From positions 1-36,989 of the forward strand of contig MEDY01000408.1 of NCBI GenBank assembly GCA_001724265.1: 36,989 nt of DNA, in the 5' to 3' direction. The notes under the pieces are model-generated. The model had not been told where the DNA came from, made no database searches, and worked only from the letters and a program-made list of their open reading frames with translations. Source of the stretch: Rhizaria sp. SCN 62-66. Its lineage: Eukaryota. This document shows, piece after piece, positions 4,780 through 36,989 of the stretch (position 1 is the stretch's first letter; every line of letters begins with the position of its first letter). Both the position numbers and the translations under genes were made by a program.

Positions 4780-7700
4780 ATGATACAACGCCACCCCGCG
4801 CTGTACGCGTCCGCTGTGGCTTTGCTGCTCTGGACGTTGCTGGGCCTCGTCTTTGCGGCCCCACACACACAGTTTGCATTCACATTCCCTGCAACTTATG
4901 TTCCAAGTCTCTCAAAATCGACTAAGACTATCACCGTCAAAACAACGATTACTGCCGATGTTCCTAACAGCATCCCTGGAAATGAGACTGCCTCGACGTA
5001 CTTCACCTTCGTTTGCGACCACCCCGCGATCATCAGCGTCACGCCCGATAGCGGCGGACCCTCTGGTTCGTCAGTAACCACCATCTCTGGCGTTTAGTAC
5101 GGTCGTAGCGGCTCGAACCAGAATGATATGTACGGTTCCACCAAGGCGCTGACTGCGACGTTCGTTCTCGATCTCTTTACCGTTGCACCCGTCTACTCCA
5201 CTGCAGCTTCAGGCTACAGTCTCCCGGCTGGGCTGTGCGTCAGTCTACAGCATAACATGGCTGAAGAGCGCAACCGCGCAGAGACACCGCAGACACCCCT
5301 CACAGTCGCTCCCTCGTGGTCCACGAGCCCTTTGCTCACCGCCTCACGCGATGTCACTTCGACTGCAAACCAGGGCGTGTTTGACTTTACAAACAAGGTA
5401 CTGACATCGTCAATGACGTTTACCTCGGACCACCCGTATCCGGTTTTGGGCGGTTACATTGAAATGCGCACCGCCTCCGGTCAATGCACCAACAGCAAGC
5501 TCGACTTGATGACGCTTAATGTTGACGCCTCGACGCCAGGTTTCATGCTCCACGCGAATCGCACGACGACTAAGGTGTTTTTCGAGGCCATGACAGACTT
5601 TGTTCCTGTTGATGGCGGTATCAAACTTGTAGTAGACAATATTAGTTTCAGCACAACCAGCTCTGTGGCCTCGAACAACCTCAAACAGTGTTTCAATGTC
5701 ATGCTCATTGGTGCCAATGATTCTACGCTGCACTCAACGACGCTGCCACTGTCAAGCACGCCGGTGTCGGTGCCCCTGACTGCCCCTGAGTTAAGGGTTG
5801 CGACAGCGCACACCGAGATGCCCCTGACGTCTTACTGGATTGACACATACTTTAACCACAACAAGTCGCCGGCCGTTAACGTTGTACTCACGATGAAGTC
5901 GGACGCGACAACCTGCCGCCAGACGCTGCGACCGTCATCATCCGTACCCGTGGAATTCACACCGCTCTATGTTAAGAGGGCTTTTGTGCGAGATGTCAAC
6001 GATACCATGGGCTGCACCGTGACTTACGACGGTGCAAGCCGCATTGACGCGTGGATGGTGTCGTCGTTCGTGCCCATTCGATTCCTAATTAGCTGCAGTT
6101 CAGCAGGCGGCGCGGAATGGATCCGGCTGCGCATCAAAGGAGTGATGACTGAGACAACACCAATTCCGGCTTCGTGCTGGACACTTGAAAGCTCAAGTTC
6201 ACTCACAACATATTCGTCTGTCGCCACTACTGCGTCGGCGGCGTGGGTTGTCAACCCGACTCCAACGTATGCATTCACGCAGTCCTCCACATCTACATCT
6301 TATCGCTTTGCGTGGAGCATATCCTCCCAGTCCACAAACGCTCAGCTGACATTTCTCTCTAGTAACAGCTTATCCCATTGCCCTCTGTCTGATCCTGTCA
6401 AATCTAACGCGGTTGCCTCTTCATCTCCTGTCAGTTTTACCTCCTCCAGTTCAGGAAAGCAAAGCACCCCTGGAATTTTTGTGGCGTTTCAAGGTACACC
6501 CTCAACGTCACTGAGTGCATATTTTGACGTGTTAAAGTCTTATTTTACCGATTTCGCAACGAAATTCCCTGCGTCCTGTACACAAGCCACGCTGCTTTTT
6601 GGATCAACAATTCCTCTGCAAGTGACAACATTTCCTTCCGATTTTGATATTGCAATTACCCGCACCAACACGACGAACGTTGATGTGATCTATGAAGCTT
6701 ACGGTTTTAATCGAACCAGTTTCACAAATCCCTGGGAAGTTGACATTAAAGCCCGTGTCTCAATTCTTAACTTCACGGCTGCCACGACGCAAGCCGATGC
6801 AGGAGACAACCGCAGGTATACTCATCGTGTTGAAGATGAATGTCCTGCATGGAGCCCCACCAATGGTCCTCACGCCATCTCTGTCCCTAGCTGTGCTGCT
6901 CCAGTAACTCAGGGCCGCGACCTTTATTCCACATGTACTTCTAGCCCGGCAGGTGCCAACGTGACAAGCGTATCATATGTGCTATCGGGACCATATGCCG
7001 CTCCTCTTACGACTCGACACGACTGTTTTCGTGTTATATCTCAAAAGGGTGTGGCAACTGTCAGCACAACACATTCCGTTGGTGAAACTTTGTATTCTTT
7101 TGCGGCCAATTCAGCTAAGGCAAATGTTGGTTCAAGAATCGTTTCTTACAAACTCAACTCTTTCTCAACATCTACATCCGAATTCACGATGAAGCTCGGA
7201 TTTTTGATCCTGCCAGTGTACACCTTTTCAAGTGTCTCGTTCATTATCAACAAGGGAGGAAACAATTATTCTTGGTCTTCGACCGTCAACCTTGATGCAG
7301 CATCCGTCGCTCACTGGGGGCGTGTGCAGCAATCGAACGTTTGTAGTTCAGCAATGGACAGTGGGCAAGTCAAAGTCACTTGCACTCTTACCGTTCCTTC
7401 TAGCTCGTATATCGCATCGCCAATTGGCTTTGTTATTAACTCCCTGATTGTGCCTTACTCTCTAATTAGCTCTGGCTCGCTGCCTGACAGCGCATTAAGC
7501 ATGTCAAACACAGTTGCATATACCGGTACTAGTCTTTCCATGCCAGAAACCCAGCCCGACGTCTTTGACCACGCCCTGCTGATGAATTACGCCTATACTA
7601 CCAAAACGGCCACCACGCGCGTGCGCGCAACGCTTAAGTTTCAGCTCTACCGAAAGATTCCCAGCTCAAGTACTGTCCGTTTCACCTGGTCTGTCGTGCC

Positions 7701-10700
7701 CGGTTGCGGCGGCGTGCGTGAGCTGGCTGAGTGGGCCGCCACTGCATCTTGCACATCGACTATTTCCTCTGATGGATACAGCGCGCAACTGGCGTGCCCG
7801 ACGGTGACGCCGACGATGACGACACCGTATCCCATCGTCGAGGCATTGATTGAACTGGTCTACTTTCCGATCAAGGTCACTGCGCTGCTAGACACAAAGT
7901 GCGTCTCAGCATACGTAGAGTTCTTGAACGGCGCGACGACAACCTTTACCTCAAGCTCAATTTCGCCAATGGAAGTTTACGCGTCGACGACTGGTAAGTT
8001 GCTTAGTCCGATGCGTTTCTACGTGCGATCTGAGGCCTACAGCGCCGTGGTCGGGTCAGTCACGAATGGGACATTTACGATTCGCTACCATGTGCGGTAT
8101 ACGCTTTCTACGTACCGTGACACGGCTTTTGCCGCGCGCACTCTCACGGTCTCAGCATGCGCGTCACCCTCACCAGTTTCGTTTCAGCAAGGTACTCTTG
8201 AGCCGACATCGTCCGGCTCGACGGACACGGCAGATGGCGCGTTTACTTGCACAGATGTGACGGCGCCGATTGTTGGTTCAGGCTTAAAGATTAACATTAA
8301 CGGCTGTCAAGAAGATGTAGCGCCCAATCCAGTAAACTTCGGCCAAACTGCGCAGCGCTGGGTTATTGCGGATGGTGTTTTGCTGAACAACAAGACTGCA
8401 ACGTCGGCATGCCTCCAAGTCACAAACACAGAAGGGTCAACGGATACTTTAAATACTGAAAACGCATCGCTCGATTTTGCACAAACGCGCAATGCAATGC
8501 AGTATGATTTGACCGCAATTAATCGCGTCACGGTTATGGGCGCCGATCTCTACGGCACTGACGCTATGTACTATTATAACGTCAAGATGACAGTGTACTT
8601 GCTGCAGGAAATTCCCGCCGGCGAACCCGTCTACTTCACGATTAAGATGTCCAGTAGTCCCCAGTGCACAACTTACTTTGCCAACGGTATCCCCGCCAGT
8701 GCAAAGCGACCCATGACGTCAAGCTGGGGCTTGTCGATGACAGACTCGTGCACGGAGGAAGGCTTCTTGTCTGACGGCCGCCGCGTCATCAAGTGTCCTC
8801 ACCCCGGTGCGGGGCTTAATCACAACGCTTACTGGATCAATATTCCCACGTTGTTTAAGAATACTCAAGTGACTGCGACTGCGCCCAAAGAATGCTTCCT
8901 TGTCACAATGTCTAACATGAACTTGCTCTCGTCCAATCCACGCGATGACGTTGCTCTCAACGCAGTTGGCACACACCCGATCGATTTGGCTGTACGCATC
9001 AAGGCAAAGAAGGTGATCGGTGACTGGGACAACACCGATGCGAGTTTGCCGAGTCCGTGGATCCATGTCACGCGCGCTGATCTTGCGCTTTCGACGCACG
9101 AGGCAATCGACGCAGAGGGATCCGTTGCGTTTGACGTTAAGTACACCGGCGGCCAAACTAATTGTCCTGCTGGTGCGTTCGAGTTTGTCGGAGGTGCTAC
9201 GCTGACGCCCCTTGACAGTGGCACAGAAATCACCGCAGTGAACTCAACCAACGGTGGTGATTTTGCCTGTGGCACTTCCGTAAATGTGACCCATCTTACT
9301 GTCAGTTGCAATGCCACAAACGCGGTACCGGTAGGCAAAACGCATATCATGTCTCTGCGGAATGCCTTTCGTTTTCTCTATAGCACTTCGTATTTCCACC
9401 CAGCAATCTCTCAAGACTGTTTTGAAATCACAGCCTATCCAATATTAGGATCTCCAGTCCTTACGGAGCCCACCGAGTTAATGGATCTGTATGAGGACCT
9501 GCTCACCGGTCATGCGCAGTACGAGTTCTTGCCGTTACACGTTTCTAAAAGGCTTCTCTCCGCGTTGCCAACGAGTGAGAACCCGGCGGCGTTTAAAGAA
9601 ATCCACACGTTTGAGGTTCATCTTTTTGCCCACACGTTTTCATACCTCAACCTGTCGGCATTGTCACACAATGTCTCGTTTGACGTGTCTAGCAGCTCAG
9701 TTCTTTTCCCCAGCGTCTCGCTGGTCGCAATCCCAAGCTCAACATGGATCTGTGGGGGATCTTCTATCGCAAATGACACCCTCGGTGTCACGTGTCCACA
9801 GGCCATTCAGCCGTCTGCCACCCTCTACAGCCCAATGCGCTTCCGCTTTGAGGGTCCCGTTACGCCGTACGGCTCGGCGTGGCCTCGCTTTCCGAACAGC
9901 GTGATTAAGCTCGACAACGTAGTGTCTGCGCGCACGAACGATATTCTTGCTATCAACTCCGAGAATAAGTTCGATGTTCTTGTGGTCGCCGACAACGCCG
10001 TGCTGGAAAGCTCCTGGGATGCCGTGACTTCGAGCGCAGACCTGCGCTGGCGCATGTACTTCCACGCATCATACGACATCGCCAAGCTTAGCGTTAATAT
10101 CAGCAAGTTGTGTGCGCTGCGATTTGGCGAGTTGACTACGGTGTCCGGCAGCAACACCAACACTGGCAACAACGTAATCCCCACAGGCAGTTCGTCGATG
10201 TGGGATTTAATGATAAGTGGTTTTGAGTTCCCGGACACGAACCCTCTTTCCGCCATGACTACCACGCCCTACGATTTGCCTATGACGCCGTACGTTGAGT
10301 TCACTGTGATGGGTCTTGCGTCGGCCACGTTTAGCTCAAACGAAAACCGCGAGATTGATGCCTCGTGCTTTTCCTTTATTGCCGTTCCCAGTTTAGCTGT
10401 CTTTTCTTCGTGGACTGGTACGACAAATAACGTGGACATGACTGGCGATGCCGTCACCGGCTCGTTGCAAGACAACATTTTCGACGTGTCGGCGGATTTG
10501 CTTGACCATGTGATGACAGATGCAGCAAGGTTCACGAGCGTGATGGACGTGCTGGTGTTGCCCCGCTTTGACTACTCAGCTGAGGTTGCCAGCTTCACTA
10601 TTCAGCTCACTGCCCACTGTCGAGGTGCTCTTACGTTCGTCTCCCCTGCACATTCCGCATCGCCCCCAGCGACTGGCGAGGATCCGAACGCACATTTATG

Positions 10701-13700
10701 GGGAGTTAACCTTCTCAATACTTCATCCTCGATGATTGAGCTCACGTGCAGTTTGGACCCGTGTCTTGAAAAAGATAAGTTCCTGCGCTTCCGCATCAGC
10801 GGCGTGACTCTAGATCTCACAACAGCCGGCGCGCGCAATATGGCCGCCATCCCGGGCCGCTGCGTGGAGGTCCAGGCCACGATCGGCGGTATTGTCTACC
10901 GGCGGCCTGCAATCGGCCCGCTTGCGCTCCCGTCTGCGGGCTCGGTGCATCACATGGTGCAAGCCAGTCAGGCCAGTGCGCTCCCTTATTCGACGCAGAT
11001 TGCCGCTCCGACTGACGCCGGCCACTACGCTGCGTTCACCTTTACACGGCTTTATCTTGGTCTTAATGACAAGCTGATGATGACTATTCCCACTCCCGAT
11101 ATTACGATCCTCTCCAGTGCCTTTTCTACCAACTCGCTATCACTGCCAATCTACAGTAGCTCTGGTATTATTGTCACGAGCACGTCGTTCACATGCGGTA
11201 GTTCCTGCACATCATCTCCAACGTTCACGTTCTCTGGCACGTCCACTCTCACGTGCACACCAGCGTCGCCGTGTCACTTTTACGTGCCTATCACGCCGAT
11301 CAGCTCGACACCGCAGCCGCGGCTTACCGAGTGGATCTTTGCTGTAAGCATCCAGCCTTCGACTGCGACGATGCGCACTGTCCTGGAGCTGCCGATGGCA
11401 GACCGCCGCGATGCCGTCTCGGTGCCCGATCTCGCCATCACTGGCGTCACGGTCAGTGCTATTGTCGAGGCCGGATATAGTGATGTGTACGACACGGGGT
11501 TTGACGTTACGTTTGTCTTGCCGTCGCTCAATTCCGTTCTTAGCACGTACAAAAGCGTGGCAGTTGTGGTTACTTTTAGCGATTCGATTAGCTTTGTGGC
11601 CGGTTTCGATTCGACTAAGGTTGTATCGGATCCTTTCGGTGGCTTGACTTATCTATCACATTCATCTCCTGGGCGTTTTGTGGTATTCGCACCCGACAGC
11701 GTCTCTTCAGCGACTACCGTCAAGATCTCTGGGCTTGTATACCGCGACATGCACTGCGTCGCTACTCAGACAGCACTTAAGAAGGCGGGTGTCTGCGCCT
11801 CCCCCAGCTTCAACGTTACCGTTGTCAGCGACATGGACAAGTTGAAGCAAGATATTGACGCTTTCGGCGCCTCTGCGTACACTTCGCTCATCACCGCAAG
11901 TCGCACTGTGCAAGAGGGCGTTGTACTTGCGTACACCAAGACTCCCGTGCTGTTTGCGCCCACTACCGTGGACGAGTCCTATTGGTCGCTGATCAATCGC
12001 ACGGAAACGCTCGCTGTTGACAGGGCAAGCTACTCCGGCTCTGCAACTTTTGTGCCCGTTGCTTCTAATGATATCTCGACTGCGTTGGATGGTGTCTTTG
12101 CGCTTGAGTTCACGCAGGACTCTGTCGACGCAATCCCTGATCTTATAATTGAGTCTGTGACGTTTGTGTTTACCACTTTGGACACCATTGTCGTCCAACT
12201 AACTGCCGATGTGTCAAACGCGCTCTTGTGGACTGGTCTAATTGATTCGACCCATGAATTTAACGATGATGTTGTCCCAATTAATTCCCTGGTAATTGGC
12301 ATCAAGTACAATATGACTACGCAACTCCTCACGCCTCTGGTTGCGTTTGTCCGCATTGTGCCTGCTCGCGACGCTCTGTGGGGCCGGCTCAAGGAGGCCA
12401 TCCTTCGTGTTCCGCCGTCAGCTTCAGAGGCGCCGCAGAAGGGGAGAGCCATCTTGATTCCCGGATTTAGTTGGGAACGGAACACTGAAAATGAGTCGCT
12501 GGTCATTTCTTCACCGCCATTCGATGTTATCACAAACACCTCTGCATTGGATTACTTTACGCTGAGTTTTTCCCTCCGCGGTGCTTCTCTTGCTAGCTGT
12601 GCCGGCACAGACAATATTATTTTAATGCCATCTACCGTGGACCTGAGTAGTTTTAATCCAGCAAGTTACACTGCGTTTTCCAGCTGCATCTTCAGCAGTA
12701 ACGAGCTTACCTGCCCCTTGACTGGCTTAACGCTGCTTGTTGCCGCCACGTCCGACATGTACTTTCTGTTCAATAGCTGTGTCAAGGCCCCGTACTCGTC
12801 GCTGGAGTCATTCTCTGGTGAAGTTCAGCTCCGCGTCTCCAGCACAGGCTTTCCGCTGGCACACAAAATCCGCCGCTCGACACCGCTGGCTCAGACACTC
12901 TTTGTGCTTCCTCGCGTGGCGCCTGCCGTGATTAGCACGGCTATAACTGGCTCTGTCACTGCGACGGCAAACGTGGCAAAGCAGGCGTACAATTTGTCCA
13001 TAGAGATTTCCGCCGCTGTGGCATTTGAGTTGTGTCCGTATTCGATGCCGCGCAACGGCGCAGCGCGACTTATTATCCCGGAGGAGGCGCGTACCAAGTA
13101 CGTGCTTGACGTGTTGCCAAACAATGAAGTGGCTGGAACGACGTTTATCCGCGACCCGATGAATCTGGGCTATCTAGTGACTGGATTCACCGCCTCCTCT
13201 GGATGCGGGACCGCTTCAGCGCCATTTACTTTCGGATTCAACGAAATCTTCTACCATCCCCTCGTCCTCCCTGGGAGCGTGTACACAATGCAGTTTGGTT
13301 CGTACGACCTTGCATCACATTTTTTCGAGCCTGATGTCACATTTGACCACATTACTGTGAGCTGGCCCGCGCTGCCTGCGCTTCCCGCCGCAGCTACCTT
13401 CCTTACGTCCTCAATGGTCAGTATGTCCAATTTCCAGCAGTCTGTTGGTGATAGTTCCATTGACATCACCGTGGATCTTAGCAGTATTGCAGCCACCTCA
13501 CTGTGGCTTCCCCTGGTCAACGTACGGATTGAGTCCATCGATACGAACTGCTTTTTTGATTCTGCACTTGTTGCACGCCGTCCGGCGACAAACAAAACGA
13601 CAGAAGCACTATCAGTTGAAGTGATGCCGAGTTCAACGTCAAAGTCGGTTGTGTATCTCCGCTTGCGTGCAGCCTCCAATACGCCTACAGAGCTCAAGAT

Positions 13701-16700
13701 TGCGCACACCTTGTACGGACTGCTGTGCACACCGGGTAATGGCCGCGGATTCAAAGTCTCGCTGGTTGACGCGCTGACGCATGTGCGCATCAGCAACGAG
13801 GTTGCGGCACCATCAACAACGTTTACTGTCAATGCACTGCCAGTTTCCGCCGACGACAACACGGCTGACGCACCGCGCACAATGTGTCACGTCTTTAGCG
13901 GAACCGGCACACACGGACCTGGACTGCCAGAGGAACTGCGCCCCATCAGCGTGATTGCAGGAGAGAAGTATGACATCTACTGCTCCGTCTCACTGCCGCG
14001 GTCATGGGAAGTAAATCAGCTGCTTTACATGCCCATTGGCCGTGGTTGGGTCATTGTTGACTCGCGTGTGATTTTTGTTCAGGGATCCTCTTCTGCGAGC
14101 GCGGACACAGCAGCTTTTACGTGGCGCACAACTGCAACAATCCCACCGGAGAGTCGCATCACTGTGTGGTACTACAAAGTGACAGCGCCGACACTGGACA
14201 ACATTGCAACGTACTTGTTTGGCAAGTTTCACGGCTCTGTTGCACTCCAAAACACCCACGTTGATCCGAGTACCGCCGGATTGCCTCAGGACCTGAGTCT
14301 TGAATTTTCGTGGCTTAATCCTAATTCGATCACTGCGACTAATGCGTCTATCACAAATTACCCGTACGGTCTTGCATGTTTGACAGTTCTTTCGTTCACC
14401 CCTACTATCACGGTTGGAGCAGGCTATTATTCGGGATGGGTTATTCTCGACTTTCCGTCAGTTATGCCGATGTTTTCAGATATGATATTTGCAGGAGGAA
14501 GTGATGCAGCTCCGACTGACTTTTCAACGTTTTTTCATGTCAAACGTCTCAGTGACAACTTCAAGATTTCATACTCGACGTATTCGACACGCGTTGTGAT
14601 CGATCAAACGGCGTCGACAACGAATATTCGTTTCGCTATTCCGATCACCACAAACAACGCTATGACCACCACGCCACACGAGATCAAAGCATGTTTGTTT
14701 CATATAAAAACGTCGGAAGATCTCGCAATGATGCGCAGATATCGTACAGGCGGAGATTTGTCTGTTAAGCTCTCTCATTGGTCATTTATTAGTGGGAACT
14801 CCGCGACACAAACTGAGCAGTCCAAGTACTTCATTCAAATTAATTCTGCTCAGCCCTCGCTACAATTACTTGACCAGTCCGAAAATCCGCCCCAGGTCAC
14901 TCTGCGGCCCCATCCATTGACGGGCGCTATCGGTTGGCAACCAGTCTCATATGCCTATAATGGCACCACTGACTTTAACACTGGTGCGATATCGATGCGT
15001 TTCGCACTTTCAGCTGATGCAGCTACCGGTGGGGACAGGATTGCTTTTTTTGTTCCACATAACCTTGTTACAAGTGGTCGTGCCATTCGCGTCGAAGTTC
15101 TTGGCAACCTATCATCCGTCTACTATACTACAGACCTTGGCTCCAGCGCTGACTGCTCGCAAACTGGCACTGTCGCGGGCATGATGATGCACACCAGGCG
15201 GCGCAGCTCGTTTACGACTACAACTAATGATGACGCAGTTTTGGCGTACGGAATTAATACTGTGTCAAGTATGGGCACATGTTTCCGTACGAGTGCTCCG
15301 GAATTCTTAGAGGCAGCATATCTTGGCGCTTGTGAAGTGGAAGTCACAATTTTCAATCTTGCTTTGTCACAATCTGCCCCACCCCGCGATGGAGCTTACT
15401 TTACGGTGGGTATCTTCAGCGGCTCTTACCCGGCAGCTGTCAAACCGTTGATGTCGACATCATGGGCGCACTCCTACCCGATTCACCCCATGCCGCGCGA
15501 CTCCACTGCCAGCATCACTGTGGCCTCCCCTGGCACATCGGGCATTCTCGACACGGTGCGCACTGCGTCGAGCAAGATCATTTATCGTCTGCACCAGAAC
15601 GGCGCCGTTGTTAAGTGTGACGTTGGGGTTTCGGAAAGCACAACCACACTTTTGGCGTCCTACACTGAATTATCTTGTAGCCAACAGCTAGACCTACTGA
15701 GCTACGCGCGCCTGTATACTGATCCAACCGTTGGCAAGGCACACCAAGGGTTGCGTGGTGCCATTGCGCTTTCGCCTGACGAGACTCTCCTCTTAGTTAA
15801 CTTCAACAACCGCGTACTTATCGCAGTCCGCCGTGATCCTGTTAAGGGGTCATTTATGCGTGACCTAGTCTCTACGGAGACCTTTGACCTCGGTTCTTAT
15901 CTCGAGCCCACGTCGTCGTCGGTCAGTAGTGCCGCAGCGCGCGCTGCATCGCACGCGGTAGCGCCGTTTGTGTTCCATGACTATACTTCGTCATACGGTC
16001 AGAACTTTTACGTTGGCGTGATGATCGGCACGCGGTTTCTTTCGTTCCGCGTTGTTTACGGCGCATTTACACTCTGGACACTGGTCGAGACTGTTGAGTT
16101 CACACACGCTGGTCACTCCGCTGTTTCCATCGCACTCCGCCAAGAGCAGCCCGCGGTGATTCACGCGCGCAACACCAACTCGTTTGTGTTGTGCCAGCGC
16201 GCTCTGTGCAAGCTCTACGACCGCGACGCTTCAAACCCAACATCAACTTACGCCGTCACGACGCGTGCAGAATTCACGCTTTCGCATGCCACATCAGCTG
16301 CGGCGCTGCGCCCCGGTATGGTCGCTGTAGGCCGCGCGCTGCCATGGATCATCCCGCATTTGTGGCTCAGCAATGACTACGCTGCGGACGACGATCTTTA
16401 CTACGCGTACGTCTCGGGCAAGCAGCGCCTCGCCATTTCGCGCATCAGCGGTCTACGCAGTTTATCCACGCTGAGTCTGAGTGCCAGTCGCCGCATTGCA
16501 CTTGTTGACGTGGTTGCCTTGCTTGGCACCAATACTGAAATGCTGGGCGTGGTGAGCGTTGTCCCTACCGGCGATGGCTCTGCTGTCGTTGACGTTTTGA
16601 CTAAATCCAACTCTTGGAGCGAAAGCAATCTCGTCGGCGACCTGCACCGGCTGTTCTTCACGTTTGCAGACAGCAAGTACTCGAAGGAGACAACGGATCT

Positions 16701-19700
16701 TCCTCTTGTTTCCATTGCCAATCGCGACATCCTCACTAATATCCCTGTGCCGCAAACGCAGTACCAGTGGGAAGCATTGCGCCCGCGCGTGTCGCAGGAC
16801 GGCCGCATGTTCACCACAATTCCTCCTCATGTGCCACAAGACGCTTCCTCGTTTGCGACACCCCTTCTCTTTATTTACAGTCTGCGCCTTGCAAGCGTCG
16901 AAACGTCAGGATTGTTTACGGACACAACGATGTACATGCAAAAGTCCTTTAGTACAGCCTCCAAGATGTCGCTCACTGTGCGACACCCGCGCAAGTTTTT
17001 AGTTGCTGATGCCACAAAGGAACATATCGCAACTGATTATGCTATGTGGACCTTAACAGACAACAACGGATTGTCTAAATGCGACACCACCCAAAATAGC
17101 AATAGTTGGAGCTTAATTGGCAACAATGCAACGTCTGATTTCTCTATCACTACGTCGACGAGCAGTTCGTATGCTAGTGCCCGTCAGTGTGACGTCTCCG
17201 TCGAGTCAAAATGCTACGATGTACGCTCCAAGCTACACGCTTACCCATCATACTTTATTGCCAATAAGTCTAATGCCGCAAGTAAGTACTTTGAACGAGC
17301 TATCCAGCGCCATGTACAGATTGAGCCAATGCCGTCCACGCTTATTGCAATGTTATACCGCAACTGTATTCCCCTTCCCAACGCCGTATGTGATTTAACA
17401 ACAGTTATTCAGATGCCTTCATTCACCGGTGCTGCAACAGTTGAGATTCGACCGTCTTTGACATTATTCGTGCCTTCTGCGTCTTTTAATTTACAGTATT
17501 ATACTGAAACTGGCGCCTCCGACAGTGTGTCCTGCACCGTCGCAACAAGTTCACGCATTAACTGCATTTTCTCAGGAACTCGTGCAGATGGAATTACCGT
17601 GTGGATTCCTTTCGGGAGTTATGTGCTTGATCAACATGTTCTTCAGAAATTTGAAAATCAATCCCGTCTGTTGCCGTTTGCGCGAATTTCTGGTGGCGTC
17701 CAGAGTATGCGCGCTTCTGCCGCGACCACCGCCTCTTCGCTCAACGTTACCGGCATTATTAGTGGTTACTATATTGTTGGTAGCGCGAACGTTCTCTCTG
17801 ATTCGACGCGTGTAATTCGCTTTGCTGGTGTTATGGCCGACTGGCGCGAAAGTGCACTGTGCGCCTCTGTATGGGGCGGCAACGCAACGCGTTGTATGAA
17901 AGCACCATATGCTACCAACGGCGGAGCCAAGCTTCTTTCGCTCGCGAATTTAACGCTGGACATGCCCGAGACGCCACCAGACGTGCAGCGCGTGTTTCTG
18001 CCTTCGGGTGACACATTTGGCTGGAGCCAGGCCGAACACAAGCTGTATTTCTGGCGCTACACTCCGGAGTGTCCTTTTAAACCATTGTCAGATACTGAGC
18101 CTGTGCGTTCTACACTCATGGTGCGCGAGATTACACAACCGGCGCCGATGTTTACCGAGGGCGGACTTATCCAGCGCCTGCACGTGATCCGCTCTACGCA
18201 CCCTGCGCGCGGCGCGTTCGTGCTTGCTGTGGACCAGACCGGCGAGACGATTCCGCTGCGCATTGACCCGCGCGGCAACGGCTTCTCGCTGCTGACGGCC
18301 AAGGCCGGCACTACGGGCTGGTCACCTCTGTCTTCCGGCACGGGCGTGTGGGACGTGTACAAGACCCAGATTGGCTCAGCGGCCACAGGCTACGCCATCA
18401 CGGCCATGGTTGACTGGACGGATCTGGGGCATCACAACGCCAACGTGCTTACCAGCGTGCTTGTTGCCTTTGAGTCTGGCGCGTTTGTGCATTATTCGGC
18501 CCCCGTGCTTCGTCTCACCACCTCAGCTACTGGCGCCACAAACCCTACTGCGAACGACCTCAAGCTGGCACTCACCCAAAAGGGGAATGTGCGCAAGCCG
18601 ACTGGCACTGCCGCCCTCCGCGCCATTGCTGTTGTTCACGAGTGGGGTTTGTTCTTTACTGCTGGCGATGTTGGCGTAATTTTCTTCGGCTTTTTCCCAC
18701 GTAACAGCAGTGCAGTTGATGGGACTTTCCAAGATATTTCACTCTCACGCGTGACTAACCTGCGTCTTCCTTGCAGTGTCACAAGTCTTGCGTTAAATCC
18801 TGTGGCCAGCGTACTCGTTACAGGCTGTTCTTCAGGCTACTTGTACTCAATGCGTGTTACACTTACGCCCACGGGCAATATTGCGACTCCCGTTACTGTG
18901 GAGCTTGCGTTTATCCCGCGCGACCCAACAAAAAAACGGCTTAGCACTGTCCCTACATTCTTGCAGGACTATCAGACACGTTGGGAAGACCTAAATCTCG
19001 TCGACAGCCAGGATGATGCGTACTTTGGAAAGACGTACACTGATGTGTTCGCGCTGCGCACGCCGTGGGCAACTGTAAATGACCTGGCGTTCCACTCGAA
19101 CGGCGCTCATATTATGGTGCTGGGTTCTAATCCAGCGACTGACGACAGCAAGGGGGGTTGTTTCTGGTCAGTTGCTGCGTATCATTTCTCGCAGCCGATT
19201 AACAATCTTGCATACACGGTGGCTAACAACTCGTTAAATGTTGTCACAACCTGGAGCATCTCTGCATCACTGCCTCACATCGACTACGCTGGGCTGCCGC
19301 TTTTGTGTCGGCTTGACTTTCCACCCACAACAAGCTTCAGTACAAACACATCAGTGTCAACGACCTGGCCAGGCGCAATTGTCAGCCAAGCAACAGCCGT
19401 ACCACAATTAACACCAACGGCGCGTTCGCAGCTGCAGTTTACGCTCACTGGAAGTTCTTCTGTCAATGCATCGACCGTGTTTCACCTCACAGTTGCAAAC
19501 GTGACTAACCCGTCACAATTGTACGACAACCTCCATGACCTGACTCTTGTGTGCTACACGCCGCACCCGGATGACACGAGCACGGACTTGATTGGCCTCT
19601 TTAATAATGGCTTCGAAATCGCTCGCGCAAGCGATGGTACAGTCACAGGCATGCTTTTGACGGCGAAGCTACAACGTAAAGCCACTGGCGGTCCTATTGA

Positions 19701-22700
19701 GTCGCTCAAGCACTACGTCGTAGGTGCGGCACCGCTTGAGTTAGAGTTACAACTATCAACAACGGCTACGTCCGACCCTATTCCAATGCAGATTGATGCT
19801 CTCACCGACGGCCTTGGCGCTCAAACAAAGTGCCTTCTTTCTGCCACAGACAGCGTCTTTAGCGCTGCAGCATACTCGGATAGCATTGATGTTGTAATCG
19901 CAGTGGGCAAGGATAAGGAGACTTTCTACATCTCTTGTCAATCATCGACGCCTACATCAGGTACTGGGGGTCTCAAGTTGAAGCTTGTATCCAACTCCGG
20001 CTCCGCAATCATCGATCCTTTCACCACTCAAGCCTTCTATGTGATGCCCTCGGTTACAACGAGCATCGAGTACCATGAACTGGCCCCAAGCACTGTAATT
20101 CATAAGGAGCCTTTGAGTTTTCCTGCCACATCCGATGTCAACGTCGTGTTCATGTGGAACGCTCCTATCTATGACCCAACGGTGTTTGTCACTATCAGCT
20201 CCTCGGCAAGCGCTGAATGCACGTTCCGCGACGTCAACACCAATGCCACTAATGCGGCGCTTGTGGTCAATATTGGCACGGATAATACTTTCATCGCTGC
20301 GAATGCGCTGAAATATGACGGTGTCGTTATGAGGTGCTCTCAAATTAATCCAGCCTTGACAATCTCATTCGCTCATAGCGCATCGCCGCCACATATTGAA
20401 TTGATTTCTACAGCGTCGGGTATCTCACGTAATGTGTATGGCTCCGCCTATCTGGAACAAGCCGCCGGTTTCAACTTAGAAATCAACACCGCTTGGCCAT
20501 TTACAGTCAATATTCGCCCGGGTGCCCTAACTGAGTCAGTCATGATCGTGAAGCTGTTGCGCAACAGTATCGCAATGACTAACTCCCCCTGCCGTCTTAG
20601 CACCATTTTGAACGGAGCTGAGTCTGTTGAGATTACTGTCACGATTCCCGAAAATGCGTCCGAAGCAACAGCGTATATCAAATGCACACAGTCATTTTTC
20701 CTGCGTGAGTCGATTGACATTTTCCTTGCATACGGTGCCAGCGAAGATCAAAACGGTTTTGAGATTGTACCAACCTCGAACATTCGAGCATACAATCCTA
20801 ACACAGTCAGCAACTTTTATCTGCTTGATGGGACCGCGATGACACTCTCTGGTGCCGAGACATCGCACATGACTTCCGCGGAAACTGCAATTGAAATCGA
20901 GAGCGTATTTAAGTATGCCATCAGTCGTGCAACGGTGATGGTTCTATTGGCCCCTACTGCTGCTGGTTGCCGTTTCTCCACCGACACCACAACGATCGCG
21001 TATAATGAGATGAATTCAACCTCTGTTGCGGGCTTTGCGTTTATGCCTGACGGTGTGACACCGGCCTCAGGCATTATGTATAACTTAGAGACAGGATTGA
21101 CTTCTGCCAAATTCTTTGTGGCCTGCACTAAACCGGCGGTGCCCATTCAAATTGAGCGCGATATTCTGTCTGGTGATAACATCAAGTGGAGTGTGCTGCC
21201 GACAATTAAGATCCGCAATGAAATGCTTGTGCGCACCACTGCTGTCGGCAACCACAACAACTACTTTTATAGCGCGCTGCAGTCGCTTGTGCTACACCCA
21301 CTTTCAATCACACTATCTCCAGCGTGGGCTGGTAATGAGACTGTTCGCGCTGTCATTACAGGTCCCACATCGTGCAAGTTTGCTCTGGGCTCTGATTATA
21401 TCAATACCATCCCTACTACTCTTCAGTTAAGTCTAAGTTACTTTGACGCGCCTTTCTCTGTCCAGATCGCGCCAGGAGTCGGTGTTGTAAACATGCGCAT
21501 GCATTGCCCTGCCACAAGTATTGGTGGACAAGTCACCCTCAACATGATTCCGCCTGAGTCCCCTACAGTAGAGAACCCTGCGGACGCGGTATTGCGTCAG
21601 TCGTACACTTCGTACGCATCCCGCGTATTCAACGTGAATGGCTTTTACGAGCTAACATGGCAGCGTGCAATGACGGGGAACACAACAGTACCCGTTGATA
21701 TTTCAACCTCGACTGCAGATATTGTTCCGATTCCAGCCGGACAGGAGTTCTCTGAGGCACGCATCCGCATTGAAGTCTTAATGCGTCCATTACTGGATAT
21801 AGGGAACAATCTCGTTGTTGAAATTGCGCTTCAACGCGATGCAGCTGATGCAGATGCATGCCACTTGTCATATAGCGAGATGAAGGATAATATTAGTGTT
21901 TTAAAAACATTCAGCTACACAGCCCAAAAAACTAACATTTATCTCTGGTGCGAGGCGCCGACTTCAAGTCCGATTTCGATCCGCTTTTCAGTGGCCGGCG
22001 CCACGAATGGCACGTCCTACCCGCCGTTTTTCTCGACAAGTCTGCAGCCCCAGGGTTCGTTCCAACTTGTTGATCTGCCTGATACAGTGACATTTATCAC
22101 AGCATCGCCGCAGATTGGCTCCATCATGCTCTCAATTAACCCGAACGTGCCACAGAAGATTCGTATCGAGCGCTCTGACTCCTCTGCTGACTGTCGCTTT
22201 ACGTCGATCGATAATATCTCTGTCACTTCAAGCTATACAGCGTCAACCGTCGTGACGCAGACACAGGCGCAGTTTAACAATATCACCACGCGCATGGGTC
22301 CGATTCAGTTTGCTATCTACTGTCGCCGCACGCACGTCAAGGGCCCTATGATTCGCATCGTCTCTCCAACCGGCAGTTACGTCACAGAGACCTTTGGTCC
22401 GTATCAAGTTAAGGGCCGCATGTCTATCTCGTTTTTGGACCCGACCTCGCAGGTGCCGCATAACATCACCGACACAGCTGCTCACCTCAACGAAGACGGC
22501 ACGGAGATGCTTCCTGGCGCTGCCGTTGCTGTGATGGAGGACCCGTACTTCTTACGTGCGCCCAAGACCGAACTGCGCAACTTCGTACTGCAGATGGCGC
22601 CTGCGCTCTCGGCCCAGACCATTGTGCGTGTGTCCCTGTCCACCATCCGCGGTTCGTGTGGCTTTGTTGCCACTGACGCCGGGTCCACTGGGGCCGGCAG

Positions 22701-25700
22701 CGGGTCGACCACCACCGACCTATCTACAACGTTCCAGGTGCTTTTTTACCTCGGTGACTCGCGTATCAACTTTGCCGTTGCGTGCCGTGAAGCCACAACT
22801 GAGTTCCCATACCTTATCGCTGAGGCCATTGCCGGTGAGCGTTACATCACCGCCCTGACACACCCGATGCGCGTCCGCGGCCACCTGGAGTTCAGCGATG
22901 TTACAAAGCTTCTGGCTGAGGTCACCTCGTTTAACGTAATCTCGTTTGCAATCCGTCCTGTGCCGCTGCCAACCGAAGAAACGGCAATCATGATTTCTGA
23001 CGGTACGCCTGCGACAGCGTCCAATGACTGCGTATTCCGTCTCTTTGGGGCTACAACCGCCTACGTGCCTTCTCCGTTTAACTTCACGTACACGTCAACA
23101 ATGGAGACGCAGGACGTTGCTTTTTACTGTCGCCGCGTAGACAAAACTCCGTCAACAGCTTTCAAAATTACTGCGTTGAATGATATCTACCTTTCCACGA
23201 CCTCCACATCCTTTGCACTGCGCGGTGCGCTTTGGATTGAGGACTACGTTGCCCATGAGCTCATGGAGGTTGCACCACTGACTCCACTGCCGCTTGAGAC
23301 CGTGCGCACCGCCAAACCCCATCGTATCAGAATGCGCTTCCGTCCTGCATTGTCCGCTAGCGCACAGTTCCAGCTCTCGACATCGTTGGCCACCTGCCTT
23401 GTGTCAACATCGCCTGCGCCCACAGCGTCAACGACGACATTCACGCTGTCGGCTAACACAGAAACCCTCGACGCCTACGTCTTGTGCTCTGTCTCGGTTT
23501 CTTCGCAGACCGGTGTCACGCTGACTCTGCGTCCTCAAAATGGCAACACCTACTACGTGCCGTACACCACCGCAGCGTTCCCTGTTTACAGTACCTTTGT
23601 GTTAAGCCTGCCGTCGGGCAACCCTATCACTTCCATTCACATCCGCGAGCCAAACCGCTTCAAGCTCATCTACGAGCCCAACACGGGGCTGCCAGCGCTC
23701 TCCCAGATCCGGGTAACCGTGCCCAACACGGTTGCCGGAGAGTGTATGATTGCAGCTGAAGCTGCAGGCGTTGTGCCCGCGGCACCGGAGACTTCCTGGA
23801 CTGCGACGCGCCTCTTTACCTCAGCCGTGGGTGCGCGCGAGCTTTATCTCTGGGTGCGTTGCAACGACTATACTCGCGACCGTGCTATTGATGCTGACAA
23901 GATGCCTGTGCTTACGGTTACACGCGAGAGTGGTGAGCTCTTCTGGCCGCTCACAATAGCTTCGTTTGAGACGTACTATATTACATGCGACACTTATAGT
24001 GATGTAACCAACGGTGAGATTGCGGTCGTAGCTGGCGAATTTGGTCCCCGTGGCTACGGCAGTATTCTTACATTCTCTTGTAACACAGGCTATAACCTTA
24101 ACACAACACTGTCTGTCGCCGCTGTCCCCGCGAGCTGCTCAACTGCGACCAACGCGTTTGGGCTGTCTGAGGCGACGTGCAAGCAGGAGGTCCGTTGCGC
24201 GTGGAATGGTTGGGCCGCGGAACGCATGCCGACATGTTCTCTCCATGTGTGTCCGACTATCTTTGCACCCGTGTACGGTTCTATCACGCGCACGGTTGGT
24301 TACAACGCCGGTGAGTCCACGTATGACGCCAAGGCTAATTTTGCCTGCTCAGTTGGTTACGGTGTCGAGGGTGCAAATAACATCACATGCACACGTGGTG
24401 GTTGGAGTGCTTCCGTGCCAGAATGTCTCGGTGTTGAATGTGATCTCCTGGAGGCGCGTGAAGGTGTCGATGTGGAGAAAGTGTCCTACACCTTAACCCC
24501 ACCTCGATTCTTGACCGTCGCGACGTATGTCTGCCCCAGTGGCTACCGTGCTGTGCTCAACAACACACGCCGCTGCCTCGCTGATCGCACTTGGGACGGT
24601 GAGCCAGGCGTGTGCACCACCAGCACTTGTTCGCCGCTGCTCTACGACACGGAACGCATGACTCCAATTACCTACCGCACCCAAGGCGGAGCTACGTTGC
24701 CGCAAGGATCCCTAAAGTACGACGAAACAACACGCGCGACCTACACTTGTAAGCCTGGCTACGAATTCCTCATTACGTCGGCTTCTCATACGTCAACACG
24801 CACATGCACTGAGAACACATGGACGCCGATCTACGTACCTGTTTGTACCCACAAGACGTGCCCTGCGCTTACGCGCCAGTTTGGCACGATTGTGCAGGAT
24901 CCCGCATCTCTGGCCAACAAGTTCTCTGTTAATCTCACCATGACGTGCGCCTACGGTACAATTCCCGACGCCGCAAAACCAACTGCTATTTGGTGTGATG
25001 AAAACGGCGAGTGGAGCAGTACTCTGACCGAATGTAAACCCAAATTTTGCGATGCTCCGTCGACGGGCTCGTATCTCACGGTTGAAGTTGCCAACGGTCC
25101 TTCTAACTTCGGGGTTAACTACAACTCGTCGACTGCCACTTACCGCTGCGCCGATGGCTATGACCTCTCATACACGGGTTATAGCCCGACGGACAACAAA
25201 GGTGTGGTCGCTTACCTCAATAACTCGCTCCAGCTGCGCGCGACGCGCACATGCTTGCCCGACGGTTGGACGCCTGCAGGTACGCCGGTGTGCGCGGTGC
25301 ACGTGTGTGCCGCGCTTATTATGCCCGTTAACGTCAAGGAGGTGCTCTACACGCCTCCATCGGGCCTAAGCACAACCAACCCTGGTACCCCTGGCGCCCG
25401 TGTGTACCTCAGTACGGCATTGTACCGTTGCGCTGAAGGATACGAGCCGCGCGATATGCTCAACACATCAATGTCGCATACGGCGCTTCGTACCTGTCGT
25501 AATATCGACATTGGATGGGACCACACCGAGCCCGTTTGTATCCCGTACAATTGCGGTCCGGCTAACACGATTCCATACATGGGCTCGATCACATATGACT
25601 ACGATCCCTTGATTACACCGACACCAACAAGCTACCGCTCCAAGGCCATCTACAAGTGTGCGGAAGGCTTTGTCATGCAGTCCGGCGGAGCCTCCGCAAC

Positions 25701-28700
25701 ACGCGTCTGCAGTGGTGCCGAACTTGGCTGGTCTCCCGCTGCTCCAGTGTGCGTTGATGTCAATGAGTGCGACCCCAAAGGCGATTTCTTCTTTGACTGC
25801 GCCAATACCTATGGCGCAAACTCGCGCTGCATCAACACGTTTGGCTCGTTTGTCTGCACGCCGTATGTGACGAGCTCACCGGCGCTCGAGGCCGTTGTAA
25901 CTGAGCAGCAGTACACATCGTACTGGCTTAACCCCGATCTCTACCCGCTTCCAGCCACGGTCGACGAGCTGACGCGTACGATCCACCCGGCCGACGCGTC
26001 TGGCGGCCAGCTTGTTGCGATGTCTGTGATCCGCGGCCGCAACTTGGCTGAGCCATACATCAGCGCGGTTATGTTCTCTAACCCCAACATTGACGCCTTC
26101 CCTGGCCTGCTCGACTACGACTGCCGCAACGTTGTCGTAAGCAACCATGCAATGCAGCCCGACACCATGTTACACGTGCAGTGTCTGGTGACGCCTGGAC
26201 AGGGCATGGATCTGTACTTGCGCATCCAGTTCTGTTACGCCGAGAGCATTATTGCAAACGCCTCTATCAACTGCGAGCGTTGGAACTGGAACTGGGACGG
26301 CGCAACTGTGGGCCACCCGGACATGGGTGTGAACAGTAACTATAAGCTGCGTTACCCGGCGCCGTCGTTTGTTGCTTCGTCGCTTTTTTCTGTCACATAC
26401 GACTCTGGCCGTACCGACGACTACGTCATGCCTAGTGTCGTGAGCGAGCAGATTGGCTTTGATGTTAACAACCTTTACTTTGACCGCCCCGGACTACTGG
26501 CCATGTACATGGGTGAGGCGTTTACAGCTGACGATTACCCCTATGAGTGTGAGGTTGACATTGAGCGCTCTCTTGAGCTCTCTACCGTCAACCGCACAAT
26601 TGTGTGTCGCGTGCCTGATTTGGTGAACAAGGCAAACCTGCGCTTCAAGCTTGCGCTCGCAGGTCATTTTGCGTATTCCACGGACCAACTCTCGTACCCG
26701 CAAATTCCTCGCGTTGACTCCGTCACAGGTTGTGCTGAGTCTATTAACAACGAAGAGACAGGCGTTATCTCAACTACGGGCTGCTCAACTGAAGGTTCTG
26801 ACTACCTACATGTTCTTGGCAACGCGTTTATTGAGCCTCTCACGGCCTTTGTTCACGGTCGCCGTTGCGTGATTGAGCAGTACATTGACTCGACCAACTT
26901 TTACTGCCGCGTCCCCATCGGTACCGGTTCAAACTTGACGTTTATTGTCAAGGCCTCAACGCAAACTGTACAGGTCGACAACATGCTTAGCTACGGAGCG
27001 CCCACAATTGACGCTATTGAAGGCTGCACCATGCCACTTGCAGGCTCGAACACAGTTACCAACTGCGCTCGCCAGGGTGGCAACGTGCTTCTTATCCGCG
27101 GCCGCAACTTTGGTTACGACGGCGCCACAGTTACTATCGGTGGCATCTCGTGTCTCTACCCGCAGCAACGCGCTGAACGCGTCGCTGCCGCACCGTGTCG
27201 TGCGCTGTCACGTGCCGCCTGGAACTGGACTGGTCCAGCGGATTGTAATTACTCAGCGATACGGCGCAGCGTCCACGCAGGACTTCTTTTTGTCCTACGT
27301 GCAGTGCACGGCGGGCACATTCGAGCGCGGTTACTCGTGCCAGGCGTGCTTCCCAGGTGAGTACAACAACCGCACGGGCTCTCAGGCGCAATGCACGCAG
27401 TGCCCGTCTGGTACGCACGCTGCGGCGTACGGTTCCACCGAGTGCCTGCCGTGCGAAGCTGGTTCGTACTCACCTCTCGGCGCTTCCACTTGTTACCTGT
27501 GCCCGCGTGGTACATTTTCAGGCCCGAGAGCTGACCGCTGCGCGCAGTGCGTGCCGGGCACGTACGCGTCGCGCGAGGGCAGCACAGCCTGCGCCAAGTG
27601 CGGTGAGAACGCTGAGCAAACCATCGACTACTCTTACTGCCAGTGCAAGGCTGGCTACTACCAGGCGCTAAATGGACTGTGCATGCCCTGCGTGAGCGGC
27701 GGTGACTGCAGTCTTGGTGGCACAACCGCGTACAGCATTCTGTCGCTCGAGTCGTACTCCCCATCTGCAATTCAGAGTGACGTCGTCAAGGCCGTGCGCC
27801 TTTCGATTGACCTTCGTCTCTCTGCAGTCACTACAGCTGAACAGGCTGTTGTGCGTGCACTCATAAACAAGGTTCTGTTTGACAACTCGACGCTGCCACA
27901 GGAACGTGTTGTGATCGTTTCGATTACGCCGCAGACTGTGCAGCCCGACGGCTTCTACGGTGCTCGCGTTGTGTTGCTCATCACTCCCGCCTACTCGCAA
28001 AATGGACTCGTTGCTCATGATAACATTGCAACTACATCAGTCGATGGCAAGTTTGTTTCCTCCGTTTCCGACATTTCCCAGGCCCCGTTCGCAATTGCCT
28101 CGACATCTGGCTGGACCAAGCGTGACAATCCAGTAGCAGACGAGATTGCATTGCTGCTGGACGTTATTATGGCTCTTTTTGCGCGCCCGGCGCAGCAAGA
28201 AGGCTCGTCTAACGCCAACGCCACGCTTTCTGCGGCTGAGACTACTCTTGGTGACGCATACGTTGCTGAGCCGACGCTGGACGAGGCATTTGCGCGCCGC
28301 CCCGTGTCGTCGTTCCAGGAGTGCTTCCACGAAGCCTGTATGTCCGGCAGCAACTGCAAGGCGGGCCACGGTGGCAACCTCTGCACGGTCTGCGAGCCCG
28401 GCTACGGCCGTCAGTCAACTTTTACGTGCCGCCAGTGTTTTAGCACGCCTGTCCAGGCATTGTACCTTACCGCGTCGATTATTGCCGCTATTCTTATCTG
28501 CGCTGTGCTGGCGTGGAAGCAAATTGTCGACGGTCGTAAGTCGACCAATGAGCTACCCGCGCCTGCCGTACCGCTGTTGTTTAAGATCGCTGTCTCAGGC
28601 ATCCAGATCTTTGCCATTGCTGCGCGCTATGATGTCTACTGGCCCGGTATCCTGCGTCCATTCTTTGACGCCATGGACGTCATCGGCGGCCTTGGTACCA

Positions 28701-31700: not shown

Positions 31701-32047
31701 TTGCGCAAATGTTTGGTGAAGTCAACAAAGCACAGGGTCACCCAACCGGTCTCGATGGCCCTGTCGACGTGCAGAACGGGCTTTCGGAGGATAATATCAA
31801 TGCACTCGACCGTGCCACCGCCGTCGCGGCGTACACGCACACGGTCGCGAACATGATCAACAGCGGCGTTGACGTCGGCAATGACGCTATGACCATCTAC
31901 TTGCAATCGGCTCGCGCTATGGCCAACACGGACAAAGAGTTCAACGTGAACCTTGATGCCTTTGATGACAGCGACGATGGCAGCCAAGCTATTGTCCCCA
32001 GTTCGATCCTCAACACTGATGATGAGCCTCTCCATTTGAGCTACTAA
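4780..32047 (+). CDS. Giant (~9,090 aa) multidomain cell-surface receptor with a multi-pass TM C-terminus; one in-frame TAG (5095-5097) and one +1 frame discontinuity (~27165)
   Basis: ATG at 4780 starts a signal peptide (MIQRHPALYASAVALLLWTLLGLVFA) in the same frame as the 7410-aa ORF at 5128, separated only by TAG at 5095. That ORF passes into the 26945-32047 ORF in the middle of an IPT/TIG unit. Ends at TAA, followed by an abrupt switch to T-rich sequence. Confidence 0.85.
15540..19190 (+). other. Beta-propeller-like (WD40/YVTN-type) blocks in the ectodomain, probably two (~15540-16890 and ~17740-19190)
   Basis: Blade-like segments: GAIALSPDETLLLV, RPRVSQDGRMFTT, LRAIAVVHEWGLFFTAGDVGVIFF, SVTSLALNPVASVLVTGCSSGYLY, TVNDLAFHSNGAHIMVLG. 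Boundaries approximate. Confidence 0.55.
23986..25752 (+). other. Array of 8 Sushi/CCP domains
   Basis: Eight units of C...(F/Y/M)xCxxG(Y/F)...C...W...C, e.g. ANFACSVGYGVEGANNITCTRGGWSASVPEC and AIYKCAEGFVMQSGGASATRVCSGAELGWSPAAPVC. Confidence 0.9.
25756..25857 (+). other. Calcium-binding EGF-like domain (truncated, 4 Cys)
   Basis: DVNECDPKGDFFFDCANTYGANSRCINTFGSFVC fits the DxNEC and CxNTxGSFxC signatures. Confidence 0.85.
25990..27300 (+). other. About four IPT/TIG-like domains
   Basis: Motifs: GGNVLLIRGRNFG..GATVTIGGISC, GSDYLHVLGNAF, CRVPIGTG, CHVPPGTG, CLVTPGQG, and LSYxxP linkers. Confidence 0.75.
27305..27712 (+). other. Cys-rich GCC2/GCC3 (ephrin-receptor-like) repeats
   Basis: CxxCxxG(T/E/S)(Y/F/H) repeats: CQACFPGEY, CTQCPSGTH, CLPCEAGSY, CYLCPRGTF, CAQCVPGTY, CQCKAGYY. 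Confidence 0.85.
28322..31450 (+). other. Juxtamembrane Cys-rich cap plus ~9-helix membrane domain, interrupted by a ~630-aa hydrophilic loop (~28840-30740)
   Basis: CKAGHGGNLCTVCEPGY cap, then about nine hydrophobic segments. Motifs YWP, LDC, FLYRGYRTTRYYWFLAELFRK and RPF are typical of protist 'large ectodomain + TRP/FLC-like TM' proteins. Confidence 0.75.
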
Positions 32048-36900: not shown

Positions 36901-36989
36901 GGCCGTCTCAGCATACTCTCGCCAGCTCGATTTTGTGTTTTACCCTGTTAGCGCGAGTCTTAGCTCCGGAATTGACCTCAGCGTAACGA
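33977..36989 (+). CDS. Large secreted or surface protein (>=1004 codons, 3'-partial) with three in-frame TAG codons; shares a repeat type with the giant receptor
   Basis: ATG at 33977 gives the signal-like MRATTCAVWALNALVLLFFITMAFA. Track ORFs 33791-34894, 35075-35476 and 35762-35986 are all in one frame. Manual translation from the ATG to the window end finds only TAG at 34892, 35474 and 35984, with no TAA or TGA and uniform Ser/Thr-rich beta-type composition. Confidence 0.8.

Follow-up and report, generated by a model that had tools for sequence, protein, structure and literature searches.

The window analysed here is one whole contig of 36,989 nucleotides from an assembly of 34.9 Mb in 714 contigs; the analysis covered about 0.9 of the 35 Mb. 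An RPS3A gene, interrupted by a single intron of about 220 nt, lies on the minus strand (positions 1-973), followed on the plus strand by a PQ-loop transporter-like gene (1679-3826), recognised by eye, with a long low-complexity insert and a TGA end. Downstream of these lie a giant gene interrupted by a single in-frame TAG and the beginning of a gene for another secreted protein (Table 1).

Table 1. Features of the giant gene and of the neighbouring gene in the window.
Feature	Position	Strand	Evidence
ATG and predicted signal peptide of 26 codons (MIQRH...VFA)	4780..4857	+	Hydropathy; leader in 3/3 paralogues
Mature N-terminus, codons 27-105, before the TAG	4858..5094	+	Alignment with paralogues C19, C663 and C11
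In-frame TAG, codon 106; putatively Glu, probably derived from CAG	5095..5097	+	Same in runs X1, X2 and X3; CAG in X4; Lys in C19
Giant Ser/Thr-rich ectodomain with Sushi repeats, IPT/TIG near its end	5098..27159	+	Without in-frame TAG, TAA or TGA; Sushi E 1e-26, TIG E 9e-7
11-nt deletion relative to C19 and C11; frame 1 then stops at TGA 27358-27360	27159..27160	+	Alignment to paralogues
C-terminal part in a second frame: Cys-rich repeats, several hydrophobic membrane segments, TAA end	27161..32047	+	
Secreted-protein gene with three in-frame TAGs; runs off the contig	33977..36989	+	
Uninformative in-frame TAG where alignment is poor	34892..34894	+	
In-frame TAG in KRSNT*YVFR	35474..35476	+	Column TAG x3, GAG x2, GAA, GAC, TCG
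In-frame TAG in GKV*LNIT	35984..35986	+	Other rows Gln x6, Glu x2

Translation of the giant gene from ATG 4780 was found to yield a basic N-region, a hydrophobic core and a cleavage-like site between VFA and A. The best 11-residue Kyte-Doolittle mean was 2.53 from this start versus 1.98 from the Met at 5128, where the stretch contains an Asp; thus, position 4780 appears to open a signal peptide, predicted to span the first 26 residues, and the Met at 5128 does not look like one. A hydrophobic leader was detected at the same place in all three paralogues, which also aligned with residues 27 to 105, indicating that the piece upstream of the TAG belongs to the same protein. The codon is embedded in TTISGV*YGRSGSNQNDMYG; beyond it, the stop-free frame (5098-27360) comprises 7,420 codons, or 7,410 when counted from ATG 5128. 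The start, the predicted leader lacking at Met 5128 and the single TAG ahead of the long frame were therefore all as an earlier note on this DNA had described them. Its frame of 7,410 residues was likewise real and stop-free but is not the whole gene, as the 11-nt deletion moves 1,628 codons, including the membrane part and ending at TAA 32045, into another frame.

The giant gene belongs to a set of four genes without introns, each about 9,100-9,240 codons long (4780-32047 of the window, C19, C11 and C663), laid out as a signal peptide, a Ser/Thr-rich ectodomain, Sushi and TIG domains, Cys-rich repeats and a multi-pass membrane end. The copies are 84-93% identical near the frameshift, and their N-termini 34-43%. 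Pfam searches of the C-terminal part returned Ephrin_rec_like and TRP matches, both below cut-offs. The three paralogues form continuous frames of 9,082-9,238 codons; C19 and C11 are without the deletion, and C663 lacks 33 nt at the same spot with its frame kept. The 11-nt deletion is possibly an assembly error, a dead allele or the source of a secreted 7,526-aa form; the first and last are possible because paralogue DNA is about 80% alike there and another copy carries an in-frame deletion.

The TAG at 5095-5097 was examined in other assemblies and in related sequences. It was unchanged in contigs of runs X1, X2 and X3, at a depth of 38 in X1; the X2/X3 contig bridges the site by 52 letters at a depth of 3.8. 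X2 and X3 gave identical tables and are perhaps one data set, and X1 is possibly the same DNA as the window. Relative X4, about 95% identical (90-95% band), has CAG at codon 106 and, among the matches listed, is without an indel nearby. BLAST aligned TTISGV*YG ungapped across the TAG with TLITGVKFG of C19, which has Lys there, and a MAFFT alignment of the paralogues placed gaps in a variable loop around the codon. From these comparisons, the TAG probably arose by CAG to TAG, which would change Gln to Glu. Taken alone, codon 106 would point to Gln as the residue inserted; the genome-wide evidence given below points to Glu.

The neighbouring gene belongs to a second gene family, whose very large secreted products repeat a unit of about 300 residues (C704, C518, C646, C295, C699, C412, C68, C141 and C363). 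The N-terminal region of this family has about one TAG per 500 codons, far above other genes. A search for the family gave 12 TAG, 0 TAA and 0 TGA over 28 matches. Nine aligned copies (6,704 codons) held 13 TAG, 0 TAA and 0 TGA, a distribution with a P of about 1e-4 if made by transition decay. TAG was found to alternate with GAG or GAA in three of the seven scored columns, twice in several copies. Three other columns were of the Gln type (Q6/E2, Q3/E2 and one with a single Gln neighbour), and one had Leu in six of the seven other rows.

In-frame TAGs were also found within conserved genes. In eRF1 (C63; L065, exon 2), a mid-exon TAG occupies codon 111, equivalent to E107; the aligned column in 117 homologues holds E 106, D 10, V 1 and Q 0. 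The same TAG was present in a second assembly (L197), an identical copy possibly of shared source, and the metagenome scan returned no relative's eRF1 locus, only that copy. The closest relative, P0004 (84%), has Val at this column, which suggests that the site is relaxed in the lineage. Nine of 142 kinase matches were TAG-only, five of these TAGs being mid-exon and four at intron ends; the column of kinase C16 holds E 9, A 8 and D 6 of 37. A Ubc6-like gene has one in-frame TAG, aligned with Asp and Ser rather than Glu. The AMPK/SNF1 alpha gene (C304; L069 1921-2280, minus strand) opens ATG AAC TTG TAG (MNL*RVGQY), so that its TAG at codon 4 is either a sense codon, the next Met lying beyond the Gly loop, or an unusual acceptor site. 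Dyneins and giant paralogues had almost no TAG sites. Model-based prediction gave 252 coding segments (179,597 codons, about 850 kb), in which there were 25 TAGs, or 19 after removal of six at edges or intron ends; five of the 19 sit in sequence chosen because of a TAG. TAGs at intron 3' ends (four of nine in kinases, the one in a kinesin and the six above) were removed before counting, and a TAG-only SNF2 match, dynein L114 and a TAA-only kinase match were left uninspected in the counts. TAG is thereby the rarest codon, at about 1 in 10,000, followed by ATA (87) and AGA (91). These sites support a reading of UAG as sense in this genome.

We also examined which codons end genes. Among 76 model-based segment ends without a donor-like motif, 50 were TAA, 25 TGA and one TAG, and TAG has a share of 22% in non-coding DNA. 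A second model-based count of 95 ends gave TAA 58, TGA 34 and TAG 3, and of the three TAGs, one fell in a 5' leader, one probably in a wrong frame and one in the ambiguous L054, where TAA follows 23 codons on. Two of 83 TAA candidates were scored as continuing (uninspected), and none occurred inside the surface-protein family. By these counts, UAA and UGA appear to be kept as stops and are absent in frame within the family, with TAA as the main terminal codon. In the standard-code protist Euthynema, UAG ends amount to only 4.12% (PMC9161772). Since terminal UAG can be rare in such protists, the low number of TAG ends supports, and does not prove, a lost stop role.

The lineage of the DNA was assessed from the dynein heavy chain, for which the best named matches were Mataza (60%), Plasmodiophora (57%), Elphidium (55%), chlorarachniophytes (54%) and stramenopiles (about 50%). 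A quick tree of 28 rows gave a rhizarian clade with SH-aLRT 99 and a clade with Mataza and chlorarachniophytes at 96. The organism thus appears, from this one gene, to be a cercozoan. Codon usage differed little among 38 stretches (median r 0.97, minimum 0.86), which speaks against a mixed bin; at the tRNA locus described below, too little sequence was scored for this comparison. Relatives were found in P0004, P0245, P0126, P0127 and run X4 (eRF1 84%, dynein 92%, RPS3A 81-86%). The ubiquitin genes (L229, L232 and L233) begin MSMQIF, with an extra Ser, and are unusually divergent; these features may stem from the insertion that rhizarians carry at polyubiquitin junctions. An AT-rich ORF (L231, C681), possibly a mobile element, holds an internal ubiquitin copy with TAG in place of the CAG of the parent genes, ahead of a domain that may resemble a tail-fibre chaperone.

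A candidate decoder of UAG was identified. Among 30 pattern matches there was one tRNA gene with a CUA anticodon (C84; L041 1489-1561, minus strand), in a search blind to CUA tRNAs that contain introns or break the pattern. The gene was also found by ARAGORN, scored 58 bits with Rfam, is followed 3' by a T-run terminator and is flanked by GC-rich eukaryote-like frames. Its cloverleaf is taken from ARAGORN and Rfam, as minimum free energy folding did not return the full form (z -1.5); a low-threshold ARAGORN run gave mostly noise. Over 73 letters, the tRNA shares 47 with the genome's own tRNA-Glu(CUC), 40 with Glu(UUC), 39 each with Lys and Asp, and 33 and 29 with Gln. The UCCCA/UGGGA acceptor end and the T stem are the same as in tRNA-Glu(CUC), which has eight pattern matches in the genome, and the short variable loop and Glu body are not of the Leu type. 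Recoding of the selenocysteine or pyrrolysine type was considered and rejected: the 'Pyl' label of ARAGORN follows the anticodon only, and the tRNA body is Glu-like.

The release factor was found to be altered. eRF1 is changed at the near-invariant residues T32S, G57S, T58K, L124M, L126M and K130Q (human numbering by offset), such that the GTS motif reads GSS, TASNIKS reads KASNIKS and the surroundings of YxCxxxF are changed. Thr32, which is Gly in Iotanema, makes contact with the G of UAG (PMC5304391). We infer that these changes weaken recognition of UAG; they need not concern UAG, since T32S keeps the hydroxyl and 19 positions of the N-domain are off consensus. The eRF1 of relative P0004 has T58K and L126M in common and retains GTS and G57, and may order the steps of change.

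The earlier note had regarded the giant gene as independent support for UAG being decoded as sense. The decoding claim itself was borne out by the mid-exon TAGs in eRF1, kinases and the Ubc6-like gene, by the CUA tRNA and by the near-absence of TAG from gene ends. The 5095 site, by contrast, proved weak evidence on its own, because this copy carries the 11-nt deletion and because CAG in X4 also fits a fresh nonsense mutation.

We next considered which amino acid UAG may specify. Summed Pfam scores at six sites, with six of the 20 residues tried, were E 445.0, K 443.3, Q 443.2, S 440.1, Y 435.5 and L 432.9, a margin of Glu over Gln and Lys of less than 2 bits, with Leu 12 bits below Glu. Within the second family, log-likelihoods over seven columns under the family's own substitution pattern were E -22.7, Q -25.2 and K -32.2 bits, with Leu 20 bits below Glu. 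Columns of the Glu type were found in eRF1, in three family columns and, weakly, in kinase C16; those of the Gln type, about half of the informative ones, comprise the 5095 site, the ubiquitin copy and three family columns. Three further TAGs lie inside Gln/His runs. Transitions are 3.2 times as frequent as transversions per type, and UAG as Gln would predict, through a predominance of silent CAG transitions, about ten Gln-type columns per Glu-type column; with UAG as Glu, silent transversions from GAG and conservative transitions from CAG should be similarly frequent. The even 5:5 split has a P of 0.0008-0.0035 under Gln and of about 0.6 under Glu, in a test that assumes a Glu/Gln acceptance of 0.3 and is weakened by a higher value. 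Glu is the best reading because of this split together with the identity of the CUA tRNA.

Taken together, it is likely, as judged from sequence, that this putative cercozoan uses a code in which UAG specifies Glu and UAA and UGA remain stops, and that the TAG at 5095 is read through as Glu. Such a code may have come about when a copy of tRNA-Glu(CUC) changed C36 to A and, still charged with Glu, became able to decode UAG, with the eRF1 changes loosening the hold of the factor on this codon. UAG would be kept rare by being served by few tRNA genes, of which one was found. New TAGs could appear silently from GAG, or by the commoner CAG to TAG transition where a change from Gln to Glu is tolerated; the TAG at 5095 would be of the latter kind, and the ribosome, in passing it, would join the signal peptide to the ectodomain.

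The boldest reading of these data, which we regard as unlikely, is an early stage of code change. UAG would here still be partly a stop at which one tRNA-Glu competes with a weakened eRF1, and the UAG in eRF1's own gene could form a feedback loop in which a rise in eRF1 increases premature termination on its own mRNA; the frameshift of bacterial RF2 is a precedent for such autoregulation. If reassignment were incomplete, the scarcity of TAG in the four giant paralogues (2 in about 36,000 codons, versus 13 in 6,704 in the second family) would be a cost of leaky decoding. Against this, the eRF1 site is Val in P0004, and a low supply of tRNA could by itself account for the rarity of UAG.

Among the rival readings, the most weight falls on UAG as sense for Gln, or for a mixture of Glu and Gln produced by mischarging of the CUA tRNA or by wobble of tRNA-Gln(CUG), which we also hold improbable. 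CAG at codon 106 of X4, the share of Gln-type columns and the narrow Pfam margin all agree with it, and UAG-only Gln is known in Iotanema and in ciliates (PMC5304391, PMC11687900). However, the single CUA tRNA identified is built on a Glu body and matches tRNA-Gln poorly, as given above, Gln is absent from the eRF1 homologues, three family columns are dominated by Glu or Asp, and pure Gln has a P of at most 0.004 on the column split.

A smaller chance still attaches to the giant copy being a young pseudogene, in which CAG mutated to a nonsense TAG and the 11-nt deletion followed, leaving the site mute on decoding whatever the code. Two lesions do fall in one copy, CAG to TAG is a single transition, TAG is absent from C663 (9,238 codons) and C11 (9,189 codons), and the 34 codons changed relative to X4 (12 silent and 22 changed, from 38 of 191 substitutions) indicate weak constraint. 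On the other hand, about 9,050 codons across both frames hold no other stop, the intact C19 also contains one TAG, the deletion may be an assembly error or give a secreted form, and the genome-wide evidence makes it unnecessary to call the TAG a lesion.

An intron, a sequencing error and RNA editing are, even jointly, very unlikely. A base-call error, or editing back to a sense codon, has hardly any credit: X1 is possibly the same DNA and X2/X3 perhaps one shallow data set, but the TAG recurs in the contigs of these other assemblies, three paralogues of the surface-protein family have TAG in one same column, no informative column is dominated by Trp, as A-to-I editing would give, and a cognate tRNA exists. 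Least credible is a frame-preserving GT...AG intron of 24 nt (5074-5097) or 30 nt (5092-5121) that removes the TAG, for which CAG in X4 would also serve as acceptor and to which the MAFFT gaps could be attributed: the usual GTACG/GTATG donor and a pyrimidine tract are missing from both candidates, both are far shorter than the measured introns (three in eRF1 of 292, 134 and 169 nt and those of dyneins, at least 102 nt long, with GTACG, GTATG or GTCCG donors and pyrimidine tracts), the 24-nt form would lose residues aligned ungapped with C19, and the TAGs in eRF1, kinases and the second family, whose flanks align ungapped, would go unexplained. The earlier note had doubted both introns on similar grounds. 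A gap estimated at 28 nt was rejected as an intron because it falls in an unaligned stretch.

We then compared the proposed code, UAG as Glu with UAA and UGA as stops, with known codes, as described in the sources cited and in PMC4381064. UAG-only reassignment to Glu had no match in the full-text literature searched; most subscription papers and supplements lie outside that literature, and an earlier mention is possible. Known UAG-only changes, as listed in PMC11687900, are to Leu, Gln and Ser, and UAG is Glu there only alongside UAA as Lys. The closest parallel by lineage is the rhizarian exLh (Sainouroidea, Cercozoa; PMC5304391), from the same phylum-level group, in which a nuclear code likewise reassigns UAG alone and keeps UAA and UGA as stops. 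Unlike in exLh, where UAG is Leu, Leu was here the worst of the six residues and one of seven family columns was of the Leu type; a Leu reading failed on both scores and on the Glu-bodied tRNA. In addition, exLh has UAGs in most marker genes and an eRF1 that keeps GTS (PMC5304391), compared to about 1 in 10,000 codons and GSS here. Iotanema spirale and phyllopharyngean ciliates, with UAG as Gln or Leu, similarly uncouple UAG from UAA (PMC5304391, PMC9161772, PMC11687900), and Iotanema eRF1 carries T32G at the same GTS threonine as T32S here (PMC5304391). They differ in the amino acid and in supergroup or phylum, and the ciliates use UAG widely; a Gln reading as in Iotanema and Hartmannula failed on the Glu-like tRNA and on columns that split about evenly.

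The closest parallel in decoding is Oligohymenophorea sp. PL0344 (PMC10553269), in which UAG is Glu by way of CUA tRNAs nearest to tRNA-Glu. That ciliate has UAA as Lys and ten CUA genes (PMC10553269), whereas the present genome ends genes mainly with TAA and yielded a single CUA gene. That a tRNA-Glu(CUA) can function in eukaryotes is known from peritrich ciliates and Blastocrithidia (UAR as Glu; PMC11687900, PMC12153298); these organisms read both UAA and UAG as Glu in AT-rich genomes, unlike the UAG-only change in GC-rich coding DNA proposed here. UAA as sense, as in peritrichs, Blastocrithidia and PL0344, failed on the use of TAA as main terminal codon. Few codes separate UAG from UAA, and most of these are from ciliates; the present case lies in a putative GC-rich cercozoan for which a candidate tRNA and the release factor are both identified, and, if true, it would be a second and different UAG change in Cercozoa, after Leu in exLh. 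Codes of this kind may go unnoticed in screens of marker genes and be taken for introns or pseudogenes during annotation. UAG as Glu with UAA and UGA as stops would thus be a further variant of the stop-splitting codes, and, since UAG is so rare, this genome may show a stage just after a stop codon was abandoned and captured, at which codon capture versus an ambiguous intermediate becomes testable.
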